NCBI GenBank assembly: GCA_964016885.1 | Contig: OZ024741.1 | Location: 202,120,001 to 202,184,000, forward strand | DNA: 64,000 nt | Source of the DNA: Eledone cirrhosa | Taxonomy: Eukaryota | Direction of reading: 5' to 3' | Shown here: piece by piece, positions 1 to 38,520 of the stretch | How positions within the stretch are numbered: position 1 is the first letter of the stretch | Layout of the letters: the number at the start of each line of letters is the position of its first letter | Program-made: the position numbers and the translations under genes | The notes under the pieces: generated by a model | The model's database searches: none | What the model saw: only the letters and a program-made list of their open reading frames with translations | Told to the model about the DNA's origin: nothing

Positions 1-354
1 ATGGCGTCTTTTTAAATGTAAACAAACTCTTTTGATTGTGAGCTGTAGAACCGTTTCGTGTGATTTTATAATGAGATATTTACTTAGAAATAATTGATTT
101 TTATAAGACTCAATATGGGATGAAACGTTCGTAAATCAACGTATTTGGTAATTACTTTAATGAATAATTTGCTTCATGCACGATTGTTATTTTTAACACA
201 ATAGGATTTTGTACACATGCTTGTTTGAAAAATCTTTCAAGGAAGCATGAAACAGCCTTTTGTACTGTTTATCATAATAAATTACAGTATTTTGAGCTGT
301 TTTAACTTCTCCACCTACCTCCTTCCAATTTTTATATTGTTTTTGTAAAAAACG

Positions 355-415
<61 letters not shown>

Positions 416-495
416 GTGTAAACAACAAATTCGGTTTTAGAACTTGTAAAAACCCACCTACCAACCCACTATTAGATGCATTTGAGCAGGACCTT

Positions 496-1758
496 ATGAA
501 CTTAATCCTTAAAATTAAATTCAAAGGACGTAACACCAACAACAAATTACAGAAAGATATTAAAAAACTACTGGACGACCTTAAAAATACCAAAGGAATT
601 GTAGTAAAAGCGGACAAAACATCAAACCTGTATACTATCGACTGCACTACATACAACAACTTCATTCGAAAAGAATTACATAAAAAATATAGAAAAACGA
701 ATGAAGTAACTCTTAAGCACATCAATGATGAGGCATGCGAAATAGTGAAAAATCTCGGAATCGAAGATAGGACAGGACCACTCTTACCGGCGGTACCCAC
801 CTTCAATCTTAAGGACCATAAGGTAAACTTTGATAATGACCCTAAAATTAGATTAATCTGCCCCTCTAAATCAGATATAGGTAAAATAAGCAAATATATC
901 TTAGATAGAATCATCCCCCAAATTAAGGCTAAGGTTAACATTAAACTCTGGGGGAAGACCCAAGAAGCAATAAGATGGCTTAATAGCATTAGCAATAAGA
1001 ATAAATCTAAGTTTATCCAGTTTGATATCGACGAATATTACTCATCGATATCACCTGAAACTTTGAATAGAGCCATTAAGTTTGCTAAGGATAACTCTGA
1101 CCTTACAAACGATGAAATTAAGATTATATTAGAAGCTAGGAAAACTATAGTCAAATTTGAGAACAGTTATTGGGTACGTAAAGATAGACCCTCTAACTTT
1201 GACATAACAATGGGCTCTAACGATTCGGCGGAAATAACTGATATTGTGGGGTTATTTATCGCCTTTAGACTCCAGGAAAAATTCAGCAATCTCCACGGCG
1301 GAATATACCGCGACGATGTTCTCCTCCTAGTTAAAAACCTAAATAACCAAAAACTAGAAAAACTACGCAAAGATATAAGAAAACTACTACTCGAAATAGG
1401 ACTAACTATAACATATGAATACAACCTTAAAGTAGTTAACTTCCTGGATGTCACACTCAATTTAAACTCTGGTCTGATTAAACCGTTTCATAAATTGAAT
1501 GAAAATCTCAAATACGTAAATGTTGGGTCTAACCACCCCATCTCTATAATTAAATCTATCCCTAAAAATATTTCCCTTAGAATCTCGGGTCTATCTTCTA
1601 ACATACAAGTATTTAAGGAACACGCCGAGTACTACGATAACGCCCTTAGTAAAGCAGGCTACCTCAACAAAATAGAGTATATAGATGAGAACAATCAAAA
1701 CACCCAAAATAAATCCCACATGGACGAAAGGATACGTACACTTGAAAGAAAAATTTAA
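496..1758 (+). CDS. PLE reverse transcriptase, open ORF without GIY-YIG domain
   Basis: Motifs KADKT, LKDHK, RLICPSKSDIG, IQFDI, MGSNDSAE, GGIYRDD, NFLDVTL, SNHP. The frame stays open upstream to ~409 (NKFGFRT..PP..LL..FEQDL). Confidence 0.85.
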   Translation: MNLILKIKFKGRNTNNKLQKDIKKLLDDLKNTKGIVVKADKTSNLYTIDCTTYNNFIRKELHKKYRKTNEVTLKHINDEACEIVKNLGIEDRTGPLLPAVPTFNLKDHKVNFDNDPKIRLICPSKSDIGKISKYILDRIIPQIKAKVNIKLWGKTQEAIRWLNSISNKNKSKFIQFDIDEYYSSISPETLNRAIKFAKDNSDLTNDEIKIILEARKTIVKFENSYWVRKDRPSNFDITMGSNDSAEITDIVGLFIAFRLQEKFSNLHGGIYRDDVLLLVKNLNNQKLEKLRKDIRKLLLEIGLTITYEYNLKVVNFLDVTLNLNSGLIKPFHKLNENLKYVNVGSNHPISIIKSIPKNISLRISGLSSNIQVFKEHAEYYDNALSKAGYLNKIEYIDENNQNTQNKSHMDERIRTLERKI

Positions 1759-2014
1759 GTCTGAATGTTAATTAAGTGCAAACACAAAACCAACCACGCA
1801 TATCTATACTATCTCTAATCCTTCTATAGATTTAGAAAAATAACCAATAATATATTCTATAAAAATGTCAAAACAACAGATGGGAATCTAATTACTCACT
1901 GCCACCAAAAATTCTCACTGCTATCAAAAAAACCACTCCCTCAACTATTCTTCTAACAACTTCACCCCTCCCTCCTAATATTCTCTATAAAAACCAAACA
2001 GGTCCTCAGTAAAA

Positions 2015-2135
2015 TTATTCCGATGAAATGACAGTTGATAATAACATTGAAATATTGAATGTCTGCATAACTAATACTTTGTAGATAGCAGCTGTTTTCA
2101 GGTTATGTAACTGTTATAGAAACACGTGTCAATAA
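2015..2135 (+). ncRNA. Type I hammerhead ribozyme motif (CCGAUGA variant, long stem II insert)
   Basis: Stem I ttatt/aataa; CCGATGA 2020-2026; stem II atgacagtt/aactgttat; GAAA 2119-2122; palindromic stem III ACACGTGT; GUC site 2128-2130. Confidence 0.7.
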
Positions 2136-2169
2136 ATTCCTTTTAACTAAACAGTATCCATTCAAATCC

Positions 2170-2223
<54 letters not shown>

Positions 2224-2424
2224 TTAGTTATACTATTTATGGTTATGTAAACACAAAACCTTAAGCAGTTGTAAGTATTTTACACACACCCTAAATAGTG
2301 GTAGGCAGTAATGTATTACTACCTTATTACCAGTAAGTTAAGTAGCTCAATGTAAAAACATCAGATGATTTACAGAGCAGTTATATGAAATATAAGAATC
2401 AAAGAACTGTTCAAAACATTATTG

Positions 2425-2471
2425 TGCTTACAGCTGTTTCCTCCAAACCGAGGTTTGGATTCTTCGGAGCA
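2425..2471 (-). ncRNA. Type I hammerhead ribozyme motif
   Basis: Reverse complement of 3626-3672. Confidence 0.8.
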
Positions 2472-3625
2472 ATTTATTAATGCATGGACAGTTATATGAC
2501 CTCCTTTTCAGCCGAGAGACATACCAATACATATTCAAACATTGATACATATTCAAACATTGTGGGTCAACATTCATTACAGAATTTAGAGTGGCAGTAC
2601 ACACTTCGAGATTACATTTATATTAATAGGTACAATCAAAAATCAAAGATATAGGTTAAAGTACAACATGAAGATAAGTGGTTATATAGTGCAAATGTTA
2701 TATGTGTGGCACGCATGTGCGTCTTGTTTATATAGTGTGGCAGAGAGATATGTGTGGTAGAGGCACTTAGGTAGGTAAATAAGAGTGTTAGGTTGGTAGA
2801 TCTGGTGGCAAAGTCTTTATATGATTGATGTAGTCTGTGTGTGGAGAAATATTATAAGCATTAAAGATAGTGCAAGCATTAAAAGTGTTATAAGTATTGG
2901 AGATGCACAGCGCAGGGATGTCAAGTAATTCATGTACTTCGGCATTTTCATGGTCAAGGGAGTGTATATTTCGATTATATGCCTTTCACATAATCCACGA
3001 CAATCCAGTTAGAGATCGTAGTCTGGTGTTCTTTAGTTCGATACAGGAGGTTGTTACGTTTCGAGAAACGCCATTGAATACCGGAATACTGGATTGTCGT
3101 GGATTATGTGAAAGGCATATAATCGAAATATACACTCCCTTGACCATGAAAATGCCGAAGTACATGAATTACTTGACATCCCTGCGCTGTGCATCTCCAA
3201 TACTTATAACACTTTTAATGCTTGCACTATCTTTAATGCTTATAATATTTCTCCACACACAGACTACATCAATCATATAAAGACTTTGCCACCAGATCTA
3301 CCAACCTAACACTCTTATTTACCTACCTAAGTGCCTCTACCACACATATCTCTCTGCCACACTATATAAACAAGACGCACATGCGTGCCACACATATAAC
3401 ATTTGCACTATATAACCACTTATCTTCATGTTGTACTTTAACCTATATCTTTGATTTTTGATTGTACCTATTAATATAAATGTAATCTCGAAGTGTGTAC
3501 TGCCACTCTAAATTCTGTAATGAATGTTGACCCACAATGTTTGAATATGTATCAATGTTTGAATATGTATTGGTATGTCTCTCGGCTGAAAAGGAGGTCA
3601 TATAACTGTCCATGCATTAATAAAT

Positions 3626-3672
3626 TGCTCCGAAGAATCCAAACCTCGGTTTGGAGGAAACAGCTGTAAGCA
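3626..3672 (+). ncRNA. Type I hammerhead ribozyme motif
   Basis: tgct-CCGAAGA-a-tccaaacc-tc-ggtttgga-g-GAA-ACAGCTGT-A-agca: stems I and II pair, stem III is palindromic, GUA site. Confidence 0.8.
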
Positions 3673-3773
3673 CAATAATGTTTTGAACAGTTCTTTGATT
3701 CTTATATTTCATATATATATATATATATACAATGATATTAAATAAATGGAAACTATTTATAAAACCATATTTA

Positions 3774-26618: not shown

Positions 26619-26665
<47 letters not shown>

Positions 26666-26666
<1 letters not shown>

Positions 26667-29600
26667 AGTTGCATTTATCTTGCTTTATGTTCATACGAGT
26701 TATCACCAAGTCACAACCAGTGACCTCAAGAGACAACAAGGTCCGCCATGTTCAAGAAAGAACATACATATTCACACATGCATCTTTAGTGTTTAGACTT
26801 GTGATGTACTTATATTGACAGAATCTTCCTTAGTATATGGGCAGTTCCCATTAGTACTATCTTTTGTATTTCTCCTATACGCGGGTTTCCTGGGATTTGC
26901 GATAAGTAATCATTAGACCCCTTAGGTATCATTCCCAGAGCGCCTACAACCACTGGTATTGTTTTAGTTCTCAATTTCCACATTTTTCCAATTTCTATCT
27001 CCAGGTCCTTATACTTGCTCAATTTTTCAAATGTTTTTATAGATACATTCTTGTCTATTGGAACAGACATATCAATTAGCAGGCATACCCTCTTTTGAAA
27101 GTCTTTCAATATTATATCAGGTCTGTTTGCATCTATTTTTCGGTCTGTTTGGATGCTAAAGTTCCACAAGATTGAGATGTGATCTTTTTCAAGTATGGGA
27201 GGTGGTTGATGCTCCCACCAATTCTTTTGATGGGGCAGGTCAAAATGCTTACACATTATCCAATGTATGTATTGTGCAGCTCTGTCATGCCTGTTTAGGT
27301 ATTCGGTTGGAGCTATAGGACTGCACATTGAAATTATATGGTCAATGGTCTCTGGTTGTTTTTTGCATACACGGCATAATGGGCTGCACCCATTTTTTAT
27401 TATGTTGGCTTGGTAATTTTTTGTTGGCAGACACTGATCTTGTGCCGATATAATCAGTCCTTCAGTCTCCGATTTCAGTCCAGAGGATGCCAACCACTGA
27501 TGGGTTAAAGTTTTGTCAACATCAGGATTGTTAGCTCGCTCTGGGTATTTTCCATACAGAGGCTTTTCTTGCCATTTCTTAGCCAGTTTCTGTAGCAGTT
27601 CTTTCTTTGCAGTTACTTTTACCTGCTTTGCTTTTTCTGTGTTTTCCATTTCAGCAGTAAATGGGACTTCTGAAATTTGTAGTCCATTACTGTATCTTTG
27701 TGCATCTTTTGTAATGGAATATGATCTTTTGATGCTTTCGTGTTTCAAAACGAGTTTGATCATCCAATCATGTGATTCCCTTAGATATGTAGATAATCCA
27801 ATTGTTGCAGTTTTCAACGCAATGTCTAACTGGATTAACCCACGTCCTCCTTCTTTCCTAGGGAGATATATTCTATCTATATCTGCCTTAGGGTGATGCA
27901 TTCTGTGCATGGTTAAGAATTTTCGAATTTTTGTATCGAGCCTACGGATCTCTGATGACATTGTAACTGTAGGTTACTACTGGTATGGCAAGCGTGTTTA
28001 TGGCATCGATCCTATTCCTTGCATTCAATTCCGTTCTTAAGATTGCTCTTACTCTGCGGTAACATTCCTTCCTTATCCTTTCCCTCATTGTCGAGTGCTT
28101 GATTCCGTCTCCTTCACAAACACCTAGATATTTGTAAGTTTTTTCTTGATCAAGTTCTCTTATCACGTTCCCCCGATCAAGATTAATGTCTGAACTCTTC
28201 AGCAGCTTTCCTCTGGTGAACGTTGCTTTGGCGCATTTATCTAGTCCAAACTCCATTTTAATGTCATCACTGAACTGCTTCACAGTGGATAATAGCCCTT
28301 GCAATTGTTCATCATTTTTTGCAAATAGTTTCAGGTCATCCATGTAGAACAGGTGATTAATGGTTTTGTCATAGACTTTATATCCATGTTTTGTTTCATT
28401 GAGCATTTTACTTAATGGTATAAGTGCGATGCAGAATAAAAGCGGTGATAAAGAGTCACCCTAAAAAATTCCACAATTAATATTAACTTCTCCAGTTTCC
28501 AGTGATTTTGTTTCACTATTCAAAAGGAGTGTCGTTTTCCATGTCTTCATACTGAATGACAAAAACCTCCTGACAACGGGGGATATTTTGAAAATCTCTA
28601 AACATTTTTCAATCCAACTGTGTGGCAAACTATCAAATGCTTTTTTATAATCTATCCAAGCAATTGATAGATTTTTGTGTCTATTATGACAATCTTCCAG
28701 TATCATTTTGTTAACCAGAAGCTGATCCTTACAGCCATATGAGCTTCGTTTACACCCTTTCTGCTCAATGGGAAATAGGTCATTTGTTATCAGGTGGTCA
28801 TATGTGTATTCAGTTAGGACTGATGTTAAAATTTTATACATTGTGGTCAAGCAAGTTATCGGTCTGTAATTTTTGGGATTGTTTGTCTCATCATTCTTCG
28901 GAAGCAGGAATGTAATGCCGTTAACTAGCCATGAAGGTATCTTTTCTGGCTCCTTAACTATTTCATTGTAAAGTTGGGCTAACAGCTCATGAGACTCTGT
29001 GAAGGCATTTATCCAAAAGTTTTGTATTTTGTCTTTTCCTGGGGATTTCCATTTGCTGGTTTTTCTTAGAGCCAAGCGCAACTGTTCAACTGTTATATTT
29101 TCCCATGTTTGTTCCTCAAGGTGAGCTGTATCTTTCATTTGTCTGTCTATCCATGGGGCATGTATGTTATGAACTTTTTCTTCGGCCCAGATCTTTTCCC
29201 AGAATTCTTGCACTTCCTCCTTGGGTGGTATTGATTTAGCAGTTATTGTTGACTTACCAATTTTTCTGTAGAAGTTTCTTTGGTTGTTTTTGAACATATT
29301 ATTGTCCTTATAGAATCTAGATCGTTTTTCAAAGCGCCTTATACGAGCAGCTTTGGCCGACACTTTTTGCTTGATTATTTCTATCAGCATGTCTATGTCA
29401 CTTGTTGGTTTTATACTGTACTTTCTTTTCAATTTTCTAAGTTTAGTTTGTTTAACATGTTCACCTACTTTATAGTTTGTTAAAATTTCTATGTCAGATC
29501 GGAGAAGGTTTATTTGGCGATTGATGTTCTCTTGCCAAGTAGATTTCTTGTGGGAATTCCTTTGTTTTTTCATCTTCACTCCACATAAGTGAGTGGTGAC

Positions 29601-30510
29601 TTTAGCCGATGCATAATAGAGATGATTTAAATCAGTAATGTTTAGTTTGTTTGTGATGATAATGTTTTTGAGAATTATGTTAGTCTTGTGTATTATCTTT
29701 TGGTTCTGTTTGGAGTTCTGGATCTTAGGGAGGGTGTCTCGTTGCCCCATGTCAGATTCTTTCATTTTCATCCATTCGATCATAATTTCATCCTTCAAGT
29801 TGGCAAGTTCATTCTCATTCATTTCTTTATCATTTACGATCTCATTATTTTCATTTGGAGTTTCATCCTGAGCATGCACTCCCTCCACTTTTTTGATCCT
29901 TTCTTTAATTTGTTCTGTTGCCAGTGATTCCGCCCCAACCCTGGGATTCGAAGTGTTACAGTTTACCTCGTTTTCACTGACACATGTTTCATTTTCCCTT
30001 CGCTGACTTTGTGCTAATAGCTTGATCTGATCAATTTCTATATCAGTTAGTAACTTTTTTCTTACAATATTTCTTCGTATATTGGCTAGTTTGTTACTGT
30101 CAATATAGCCTCTGTTTTCGGGATGTTTCTTTTTCCAGTTGATATATGTCTGTTCTGTATTCGATGTATTTGATGGGTAGTACATGGCAGTGTAGAAAGC
30201 CTCAAGGACTTCTTTATTATCTTCCCTTGACCATTTTTCTCTCTTTTTCTTTGGATTTCTTGGTGGTGAGCATGGAGGGCCAACAGTAGGAGTATTCCGG
30301 TTATGGGAGGTCTCCAGCTCCGAAGTGATGGGAAGGTTTGAACCATTAGCTGATTTTTCGACCCCAGTCTGGTTCCTCTCTGAGGGACGCGGCCCTTTTT
30401 TACCCGGGTGATGGCCGATCCGGTATGAGATTTTATCATTAGACATTTACTTTATTTTGTCGCGTTTTATCCTTATCCGCCAAGGGGTAATCATTTCGTG
30501 TTACCACTTC
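26666..30510 (-). mobile_element. Near full-length Dong/R4-type non-LTR element in (TAA)n
   Basis: Single RT + CCHC + restriction-like endonuclease ORF; TAA repeats abut both ends. Confidence 0.85.
26810..30446 (-). pseudogene. RT + restriction-like endonuclease ORF with two lesions
   Basis: YRPITCL, WIDYKKAFD, GIF*GDSLSP (stop 28461-28463), FYMDD, CRVC..ETIDHI..C, RHD, RPD..LID..K..KY; frameshift near 27950. Confidence 0.88.
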
Positions 30511-30535
30511 TATTATTATTATTGTTATTATTATT

Positions 30536-30677
30536 TCTGTTATCAAACTTTTTACACAAACAAAACAAAACAAACAAACCCACGTTGTATCGTCATGTAC
30601 CGTCTTTAATGTTTTCTTAATGTCAGCTCTTTGAGACTAATAAAGAAACCCTTATTATTATTATTATTATTATTATA
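30536..30677 (+). mobile_element. Short 3' end of another (TTA)n-tailed LINE
   Basis: ttgtatcgtcatgtac..aataaagaaa + (TTA)n resembles the Tx1 3' ends at 20640-20762 and 26555-26665. Confidence 0.55.
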
Positions 30678-30720
30678 TAAAAAACACACAGTCCACGCTG
30701 TAAAGTGGTCGTGTAGGTAA

Positions 30721-31347
30721 CCAGATTGTTGAACGTATATACTTACTTAATAAATGTTCGGTGAATCCATACGTACATATATATGTGTGTGCATGTGTGT
30801 ATATATATATATATACATACTACTGTACGTCTGTATACATATATGTATGTACGTGTACATACTTATATTTAAGTAACAGCCGTACTAAGAGTGGGAAATG
30901 AAATTTCGTTTCATTTTTTCCGTTTATCGTTTTCGGTGCACCCGGCCGATTAACCCACTCAATATGCAAATTGGGCTACTCAGCCGTTAATATGCATAAG
31001 GTAAGTATATACGTTCAACAATCTGGCAGGAAGGTATACGTTGCTGACGGTAGCTAATAAGCTTGAAACTAGTACAGCGTTCCTTTGTCAGTGTTGAACA
31101 AACGAGCAACGATGGTTGCTGGACACTACGGCTTAATACGGGATGTTTGTTTACAAACACACTGAGCATTATAATAAATGTTCGGTGAATCCATACGTAC
31201 ATATATATATGTGTGTGCATGTATGTATATATATATATATACATACTACTGTACGTCTGTATACATATATGTATGTACGTGTACATACTTATATTTAAGT
31301 AACAGCCGTACTAAGAGTGGGAAATGAAATTTCGTTTCATTTTTTCC

Positions 31348-31352
<5 letters not shown>
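30721..31352 (+). mobile_element. Non-coding HHR element with ~180-bp terminal direct repeats (retrozyme/pLTR-like)
   Basis: 30749-30927 is repeated at 31174-31352; HHR lies between; 30721-30749 is an inverted copy of 30997-31026. Confidence 0.7.
31038..31080 (+). ncRNA. Minimal type I hammerhead ribozyme motif (one core change)
   Basis: acgttg-CTGACGG-t-agct-aata-agct-t-GAA-ACTAGT-A-cagcgt. Confidence 0.75.
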
Positions 31353-31412
<60 letters not shown>

Positions 31413-31834: not shown

Positions 31835-32223
31835 TGCCCCCCTCGTTATCGAGTATGGCCATTGCACGATATACCATTATTAATAATTATTAATTAATTC
31901 TATCGTGTAATGCCTGTGCGTGAAGATATTTTTTAAAGTGAGGAAAAACTGTGCACTGAGCCAATCCCACTCTCTGAGCGACAATAGCTACAACCCGAAA
32001 AGAAGAAAAGATCAACATCATCGGTAACTACTGAGCCGCAGGTTTTATATCGGAGTTATCCCAGTTTCCTGAGTTACCTTCTCCTAGAAGAATGCCCTGA
32101 CAAAGGCTAGGGGTCCTTCACTCCCATATACATACATATATATATACATACATATATACATATATATATATACATACATCCATACATATATATATATATA
32201 CATACACATATACATACATATAT

Positions 32224-32808
32224 AGTGGCTGCCAACTCCTTTTCGAGTACGGCCACTACTTTATATCCATGTAGGAGTACCCCTACCGATGCGCTGAACG
32301 ACTTGAAATCTCTGGTACAAACACTACACCTGTGACAATTATTGACACATAGTGCTGGGCCCATGGTACCATGTGATGACAAGTGCAGAGAGATCTCCAG
32401 ATATAAAGCAATGCCTGTGCCGTGAAGCTTTTATAGTGAGCAAAGGCACTGCACAAAGCCAGTCCCACTCTCTTAACCAAGATGATATTTACCAAAAATA
32501 AGAACAAGTCAACATCATTGGATACCATCAAGGTTGCAAGTGTTATATCAGAGTTTTCCTTCTCCTAGAATTCTGCCTTGACAAAGGCTAAGGGGTCATC
32601 GCTCCCAGTGATTTTGAATGGCCATTGACTCTTAAGAGCTCCTTTGCCCTTTGACAGGTTTTGCTTTTAGTCCTGCAGGATGTCCAAAGTCACCCTCCTC
32701 ACCAAGAAACCTTGGTGGGGTTGCCAGTTTAGTCGCCAACGACCCGACCATGAGGCAGGTTGTACTGGGATACATGTTACCAGTAGCACCAACTGGTGAC
32801 CTGACATA
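32224..32808. repeat. Unclassified ~590-bp non-coding interspersed repeat, copy 1
   Basis: Highly similar to 36297-36909; diverged partial copy at 31830-32125; flanked by microsatellite. Confidence 0.85.
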
Positions 32809-37209: not shown

Positions 37210-38520
37210 AACAACTCTACAAGCAGAAAATGCAGATAGGTAAGAGGTACTTACAAAACCATAGTGTCGTGTTTCAGGTTGAGAAGGGGTAGGGGGTAGG
37301 GTGGGAAGGAGGTAGAGGGGCTATCTTGTCGGGTGGCGTTTAAAAAGAAAAAAAAGAGGAAGTCGTTTTTAGCCATCGGGCATTATCACTGGCTTAAGGT
37401 ATTTGAAAGTTGCAAAGTGTTTGTGCATTCAGTTCGGGCAGTGTTCAGAGAGTTTGTTCAGTAGCGGGCTTTTAGCGATTAATATTTCGTAACTCTCTGA
37501 GATACAAAGGTCGCAGCACTTGTGTCCTCCGTTGTATGAGTGCGCTTTCTGGAGTATTTTCCATTTAAGCGCGAAGGGGGTGGAGTTCATTTTGAGGTCC
37601 CAAACAAAGGAGGCGAGTGTTGTCTGATTTGATTTGTCCGGTCCTCTGAAGGAGTGGGTATGGGCATACCACCGGGTCTTAAAGTTATTGGAAGTCATGC
37701 CGATGTAAGTCTTTTTGTTGTTGCAATCATCGATGCCTGAGATGACATCGCATTTGTATACGATATTATTTGTCAGGCATTTGTTTTCAAGTGGGCAGGC
37801 TTCCTTATTTAGGCAATTGCCTAAATAAGGAAGCCTGCCCACTTGAAAACAAGGCCTCAGTCCGGGGATTGGGTTCGGAGGTGGTTGGCTTATTTAATTT
37901 TTTAGAATTGAGATTGGCTATATTCCTAGCTAGGTTAGGTGTAGTGGAGTAGGAGAGTCTTATTGTGTTCTTATTAAAGATGGTGTAGTACCTATGTTGT
38001 ATGGGGAAGTGTGTGTTCAGCAAAGTGAAGAAAATCCTAGCTATAGGTGTAGAGACCTCTCTATTGAAGGGAGCGTTGTACCAGCTAATCTGCCTATGCC
38101 TATTTCTCCTATTCAGTCTTGCGGTGGTTTCTAGGTAAATTATCTTTTCTTTAAATACGCTGCGGGCGAAGGCGTCAATGTAGTAGGAGGCAGAAGCGTT
38201 AAATATATCTTCATTGGCCGAGAGGCCGGAGATTCTGATAGAGACGCTTTTTATTAAGTTATCAGTGATGTTTTGGGGGTGGTTAGAATTAACATTAATA
38301 TAACTAAGGGACTCATTAGTTTTGTGGTACGGGTAATAGAAGGAAGTATCTAGGTCGAGAGTGACATCTAAAAAGTTGGCCCTAGTCATATTAGATTCTA
38401 TAGTTATACTAAATCCTAGATTACGGAAGTACGAGTTTAAGTTTCTCCGAAACCCATCGGTGGTTCTGGGGTTAACCTTGTGCAGGGCGAAGACGCCTCT
38501 TCGTATTTTAGTCTTCACAT
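37210..38520 (-). mobile_element. 5'-truncated Naiad-type PLE (RT C-terminal half + GIY-YIG)
   Basis: NFLDVTLDL, SNHP, ISWYNAPF; CPLENKC..IVYKC..YIGMT..FKTRWYAH..CDLCISE..LN. Confidence 0.85.

Follow-up and report, generated by a model that had tools for sequence, protein, structure and literature searches.

A hammerhead retrozyme family of Eledone cirrhosa with Penelope-like insertions and private haplotypes repeated within its arrays

The copy in the window and its family

We analyzed a 64,000-nucleotide stretch of the Eledone cirrhosa genome (assembly GCA_964016885.1, contig OZ024741.1, positions 202,120,001 to 202,184,000 of the forward strand; hereafter the window, whose own numbering is used below), in which a tandem element without an open reading frame (ORF) carries a minimal hammerhead ribozyme motif. 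The original prediction, made from the sequence alone, described about 1.4 copies of a 425-nt non-coding unit with terminal direct repeats of about 180 bp. Consistent with this description, the repeated block comprises 604 nt, or 1.42 turns of an ORF-less unit, and its direct repeats of 180 and 182 bp differ by one substitution and one 2-nt indel (Table 1). The period of this copy is 424 nt when measured from the repeat starts and 426 nt when measured from the repeat ends, and its main arm differs from the family consensus by five substitutions.

A 29-nt inverted copy had also been placed at the 5′ junction. The inverted piece is present, but the exact match covers 26 nt; extending it to 29 nt requires a 1-nt gap, and the extra 3 nt overlap the junction. 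Penelope-like elements (PLEs) leave an inverted, 5′-truncated copy, and both target strands are nicked and extended (PMC8557442, PMC11167929). The 26-nt piece is thus what is left of the second arm of a PLE-type insertion, primed in the opposite direction, rather than a trace of rolling synthesis. The outer end of this stump matches neither of the two 3′ ends used by the family, which suggests truncation or deletion of the arm, and a sensitive blastn search with the unit found no further pieces of the inverted arm in the window. No target-site duplication is visible at this copy, and in the family at large a duplication would be unreadable inside (TA)n.

Table 1 Features of the retrozyme copy in the window and its immediate flanks.
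Feature	Position	Strand	Remark
Left flank outside the element	30677–30720	.	44-nt fragment of a different dispersed repeat, followed by (TTA)n
Stump of the second (inverted) arm	30721–30746	−	Unit positions 76–101; exact reverse complement of 31001–31026
Main arm, 1.42 units	30748–31351	+	5′-truncated; 3′ end of the tailed type
Direct repeat, copy 1	30748–30927	+	Partial first turn; pseudo-LTR-like redundancy
Minimal type I hammerhead motif	31038–31080	+	Palindromic ACTAGT replaces helix III
A9G in the catalytic core	31050	+	Rare, scattered across the family
Direct repeat, copy 2	31172–31353	+	Closes the full turn
Predicted bulged hairpin	31265–31294	+	Its 3′ base (31294) is the tail-less 3′ end of other copies
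57-nt tail	31295–31351	+	Separates the two family 3′ ends; predicted bulged hairpin 31315–31351 at the tailed end
(TA)n target microsatellite	31352–31404	.	AT microhomology with the unit

The hammerhead, whose G at A9 had been noted at the outset, is present. Stem I is formed by ACGTTG (31038–31043) and CAGCGT (31075–31080), the core occupies 31044–31050, stem II (AGCT/AGCT) lies behind a T·T mismatch, and GAAA follows at 31065–31068, with the predicted cleavage site after 31074. With the palindrome in place of helix III, the ribozyme is predicted to act as a dimer. When both window strands were scanned for generic hammerheads, this motif was the sole match, and an Rfam scan of the window at gathering scores gave no matches. 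When folded alone without constraints, the motif did not adopt the hammerhead fold and its z-score was weak (−0.67), so the case stands on the motif and the family, not on folding energy. Exact genomic matches to the intact 35-nt hammerhead with A9 numbered 7,419, against 25 scattered matches, none of them tandem, to the G9 form; in a sample of hammerheads, position 9 was A in 45 of 48. The change in the window, whether an edit or a later mutation, is thus a rare singleton. As it affects the one hammerhead of this copy, we regard the copy as an ordinary family member that is probably inactive and likely a dead end.

A DNA search of the same genome returned 930 candidates, the best 40 of which were 98–100% identical, and intact hammerhead patterns indicated more than 7,000 occurrences of the family. 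A 31-mer from the tail had 6,584 exact matches, and reversed controls of the tail and hammerhead patterns had none. Single-copy status or constant attachment to a PLE ORF had been named as findings that would speak against the original prediction; we found thousands of copies and one chimera with a PLE ORF in 70 loci. Median divergence from the consensus was 1.9% (82 arms), units measured 420–426 nt, and arms ranged from less than one to at least 36 units. The circular consensus has a GC content of 37%, and its longest ATG-initiated ORFs encode 51/55 amino acids. In its predicted circular fold, 70% of the bases are paired (z = −8.3 relative to 60 shuffled sequences, a value inflated by a self-complementary TA/TG tract). 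The family thus shows one hammerhead per unit, tandem repeats within 150–450 bp, no protein, GC below 50% and a self-paired predicted circle, and by every feature that can be tested in DNA it belongs to the retrozymes without long terminal repeats (non-LTR retrozymes).

L140, L141 and L070 represent an older subfamily, ~8–13% from the consensus and with their own shared markers. L108–L109 (contig C1, from 51.772 Mb) form a satellite-like array, at least 36 units long and 4.6% divergent internally, which runs beyond the fetched stretch. L119–L120 (contig C1, 253.17 Mb) are a very young two-armed insertion with 20 and at least 7 near-identical units and an internal assembly gap. Among contigs of another organism, 22 align to the unit. 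Half of these do so at 95% identity or more, and two terminate in (TA)n where the tailed end lies; a relative may perhaps share the family. Common family variants were also recovered from four sequencing contig sets of unrecorded kind, which have no bearing on expression, and no contig of run X5 aligned.

Insertion ends and the link to Penelope-like elements

Insertion anatomy was read from 70 loci: 48 came from among the first 100 matches to the tail on contig C1, and the other 22 were best-hit loci. Before counting we removed L017, which duplicates L016, a pair of duplicated L078 insertions, the long L108 array, loci that overlapped, and 10 arms beginning at a unit boundary or locus edge; the arm parser missed a few short arms (L065, L084, L089). 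Unit positions, given as R numbers, are counted from window position 30926. Among the arms counted, the 3′ end lies at R426 (tailed) in 63, at R369 (tail-less) in 37 and at other positions in 14; thus 100 of 114 use one of two 3′ ends lying 57 nt apart. Under a strict test, at least four TA dinucleotides directly follow 75 of these 100 regular ends, and most of the remainder are followed by decayed TA. The 5′ ends are scattered over all phases of the unit. Permutation is thus seen at the 5′ ends, as originally predicted, but not at the 3′ ends. A concentration of 5′ ends at the hammerhead cut was considered and rejected, as 4 of 104 lay near the predicted site against 2.7 expected.

The arms are also paired in an ordered manner. 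Among the 114 arms we found 36 head-to-head pairs, a layout that is the rule in this family, and 26 of the 27 pairs with both ends classified joined a tailed to a tail-less arm (24 of 25 without two segmental duplicates, p = 8e-7). In a second set based on other markers, all 13 classified pairs among 16 followed the same rule. Both 3′ ends are located at the base of predicted hairpins, which are weak individually (z = −0.46 for 31265–31294 and −1.18 for the tail hairpin) and give z = −2.24 together.

These features closely resemble those of endonuclease-positive PLEs. PLE insertions are described as partial tandems with an inverted, 5′-truncated copy, often a tail of 30–40 bp at one end, and (TA)n targets (Craig et al. 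2021, PMC8557442); a PLE protein has been shown to nick both strands and to extend them, with reverse transcription starting at two internal sites bounding the tail (Frangieh et al. 2024, PMC11167929). The present family shares the partial tandems, the inverted arm, the optional tail at one end, the (TA)n targets and the two starts; it differs in its ORF-less unit and in the near-strict tailed/tail-less rule. This signature of ends, arms and targets points to a family of non-LTR retrozymes for which a PLE protein is the likely mover, and that the family is a non-autonomous element mobilized by a PLE is very probable. The element is not itself an autonomous PLE, since its unit lacks an ORF although its insertion is PLE-like.

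Two points weigh against this assignment. The tail, at 57 nt, exceeds the published 30–40 bp, and no partner PLE was found: an all-against-all comparison of the 5′ flanks of 41 single arms revealed no ORF in common. Likewise, tblastn of the PLE pieces of the window (six valid queries) found no partner in the 70 loci, and no unit sequence shared with the pseudo-long terminal repeat (pLTR) of an autonomous PLE was detected in the window or the 70 loci, no genome-wide partner search having been run. A PLE ORF piece lies directly upstream of the element at one of the 70 loci, L099, apparently as a chimera. There, a (TA)n-bounded insert (L099:3354–4019, contig C1, 43.147 Mb) combines three parts: an inverted end belonging to another hammerhead-like family, a PLE ORF 3′ end (72% to window 37429–37893) and R187–426 of the present unit. 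The insert may have arisen by switching of the template between the retrozyme RNA and the RNA of a PLE, and it hints at the partner.

Other repeats surround the copy. The (TTA)n to its left lies at the end of a neighboring element (26620–30676, minus strand) that encodes a reverse transcriptase (RT) in three ORF pieces (RVT_1, weak zf-RVT), has (ATT)n at both ends and, we presume, resembles R4/Dong elements; its end, 44 nt from the retrozyme copy, may be related to the lost left arm. At 349–2173 (plus strand), a PLE-like ORF without a Pfam match or similarity to the unit lies between two (TA)n runs, and a degenerate hammerhead-like motif was spotted by eye in that region at ~2016–2060. A near-perfect fold-back of ~1.3 kb between TA runs (~2390–3710) is likely another head-to-head PLE-type insertion. 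Finally, 31840–32600 contains another repeat, with two diverged copies ~490 nt apart between TA-rich tracts.

Private haplotypes, A-to-G changes and the form of the template

The original prediction read the greater-than-unit length as what rolling reverse transcription of a circular or multimeric RNA would produce. A 1.4-mer alone fits a circle or a linear multimer, so the window copy is indecisive and the evidence on the template comes from its sister copies, which do support repeated copying of a single unit. Divergence was 1.6% between units in one arm, 1.7% between opposite arms and 3.9% between unrelated insertions. A rare non-CpG variant was common to opposite arms in 9 of 25 pairs, compared with 110 of 4,397 unrelated pairs (2.5%), and a subfamily marker was concordant between arms in 30 of 30 pairs, 7 of them positive. 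At L107, 71T is present in all nine segments of both arms, and the haplotype 44T+71T has 8 matches in the genome, every one in that two-armed insertion. Similarly, T247G at L173 occurs in 6 matches spanning both arms. The junctions at the predicted cut are free of indels in 243 of 244 cases.

Two haplotypes consist of A-to-G changes. Clustered A-to-G changes on one strand with U or A as the 5′ neighbor are the signature of ADAR, the enzyme of adenosine-to-inosine (A-to-I) editing. At L123 (contig C2, 78.93 Mb), a 5.8-unit arm contains six segments with nine identical private changes against its own subfamily (R111, 113, 134, 135, 146, 196, 203, 246 and 385), all A-to-G on the hammerhead strand and preceded by 7 U, 1 A and 1 C. 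The marker 111G+113G has 6 matches in the assembly, all inside that array, and the first and last partial units carry the same changes. At the older L186 (contig C6, 44.93 Mb), all 10 changes common to its three segments are A-to-G (196G possibly inherited), with 6 U and 4 A as 5′ neighbors. The opposite arms of L186 differ at ~30 other sites, which argues against later homogenization. Once the selected site and the known markers were set aside, the variants fixed in single insertions were as follows: 34 loci picked on 203G yielded 15 A>G (8 from L186) and no T>C, and 8 control loci picked on 247 yielded 2 A>G and no T>C; an unselected sample without site 196 gave 50 A>G and 25 T>C (p = 0.005). 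On sequence grounds, L123 and L186 fit a single RNA unit that was A-to-I-edited and then copied several times, starting from both strands of the target; the simplest such template would be a circle.

Several observations weigh against repeated copying of one edited unit. L076 and L105 alternate A and B units, and in L068 11C is confined to one arm, where 6 of 7 units have it, both indicating that arrays grew after insertion; such growth is real, so uniform arrays alone prove nothing. The A/B differences are not A-to-G. L123 and L186 came out of a selection on an A-to-G site, clearly hyper-edited insertions number only 2 of ~150 examined, and the 31:1 A>G/T>C ratio is inflated by the inherited marker 196G and by locus choice based on 246G. 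A246G had 104 matches against 58 for T247C among the first 100 listed of 128, counted by eye. In the retrozymes of Xenopus, 8 of 9 dimers did not cleave in vitro (bioRxiv 10.64898/2026.07.22.740005).

Three candidate explanations of individual patterns were also weighed. Site 246 was not supported as an editing hot spot, its mirror control giving no clear asymmetry. A dimer circle was considered as the source of the A/B alternation; it was rejected for L076, whose first unit is the hybrid expected under unequal crossing-over, and may hold for L105. Mixed variants at positions 36 and 238 reflect CpG decay rather than template mixing.

Could a PLE have copied a linear multimer instead, namely a read-through transcript of homogeneous master arrays in which the hammerhead is a passenger? 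The anole PLE inserts in vitro from unprocessed RNA, needs no hammerhead cleavage and accepts hammerhead mutants normally (PMC11167929); long uniform arrays exist, such as the at least 20 near-identical units of L119; and several young insertions without a private variant are compatible with either form of template. Editing of a multimer, however, should vary from unit to unit, and the identical first and last turns of L123 point to one unit recopied. Moreover, the assembly holds no master array with the tested markers of L123 or L107, and a missing master would be required separately for L107, L123, L173 and L186, although a source array absent from this single assembly may rescue the linear model. 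We consider a linear multimer unlikely. Re-use of a linear hammerhead-cut monomer or 1.x-mer, with the RT jumping from its 5′ end to its 3′ end, explains the sharing of private variants no less well than a circle, and L099 resembles a switch between this RNA and that of a PLE. Nearly all junctions at the cut, however, are exact and 5′ ends do not pile up there; the scar-free junctions favor a circle, and template jumping appears very improbable.

In the remaining alternative, the copies would be solo pLTR ends of an autonomous PLE turned into minisatellites by unequal crossing-over, a scenario found in bioRxiv 10.64898/2026.07.22.740005, and the window copy would be one such fragment. Every end feature is indeed a PLE feature, and the A/B arrays show local expansion. 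A PLE ORF directly upstream is nonetheless confined to the chimeric L099, and multi-unit arms facing both ways share private variants, which local tandem expansion does not yield. This scenario is already largely refuted, and we give it the least credence of the three. We therefore judge it quite likely that the template was a circular or re-used single unit. The window copy, for its part, is a truncated non-LTR retrozyme, probably inserted by a PLE enzyme and probably from a circular one-unit RNA.

A cycle of the following kind would account for these observations. Tandem loci would be transcribed on the hammerhead strand, paired hammerheads would excise monomers that are then ligated, and a subset of monomers would undergo A-to-I editing. 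The PLE RT/GIY-YIG protein would nick both strands of (TA)n and prime twice within the same RNA, at internal sites separated by 57 nt; extension of each primer would cover 0.2 to many turns, the two cDNAs would be joined at their truncated ends, and some arrays would later expand by unequal crossing-over.

Relation to known retrozymes and significance

Published non-LTR retrozymes likewise consist of tandem, ORF-less, low-GC units with one type I hammerhead each in thousands of copies, their predicted circle is highly self-paired, and PLEs have been proposed as the mover (PMC7229834); the U·U mismatch at the base of stem II recurs in axolotl HHR_Amex2 (PMC7229834). Their circles, at 170–400 nt, are slightly shorter than the present unit, their hammerheads are canonical rather than of the minimal PLE type, and their circles and cleavage have been demonstrated, whereas the present family is known from DNA alone (PMC7229834). 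The minimal PLE-type hammerhead shares with ours the palindromic loop for helix III, the proposed dimeric action, the unpaired base 5′ of stem II and opposite-strand pairs 100–700 bp apart; it differs in that ours lies in a self-contained tandem unit without an ORF (PMC4209133).

That retrozymes derive from PLEs as non-autonomous forms has already been proposed (Li et al. 2026, bioRxiv 10.64898/2026.07.22.740005). The present family agrees with those of Li et al. in class and proposed origin, and its unit falls within their lengths of 51–972 bp. The Xenopus families are, however, tied to PLE pLTRs by sequence, whereas no parent PLE was found here, and the accessible part of that preprint contains no analysis of insertion ends, arms or template form. 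Nor do the accessible parts of PMC8557442 and PMC11167929 report both arms of an insertion traceable to one RNA haplotype, as seen here. We found no published account of edited, uniform or phase-locked retrozyme arrays, or of one template for both arms, in a search that covered subscription journals thinly. The element class is already known; the retrozyme family is new.

In the paper that defined the class, the step from circle to tandem cDNA is a hypothesis (Cervera and de la Peña 2020, PMC7229834). Private or edited haplotypes repeated through arrays provide a DNA-only test of this step on thousands of young insertions, and, within what sequence can tell, the family offers good genomic evidence for it. 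The tandem and inverted layout and the tail of Penelope elements have been called unexplained (PMC8557442). The tailed/tail-less pairing, together with one RNA haplotype in both arms, suggests a concrete model that is testable with the existing in vitro PLE assay. We lean toward the view that single ADAR-edited ribozyme circles, primed at two fixed sites by both strands of a nicked TA repeat, were recopied by a Penelope enzyme and survive as fossils of single RNA molecules. If true, this would be DNA proof of the hypothesized retrozyme cycle, and the Penelope tail and inversion would result from twin priming on one RNA. RNA edits would then have been written into inherited DNA, a route for A-to-I edits into the germ line.
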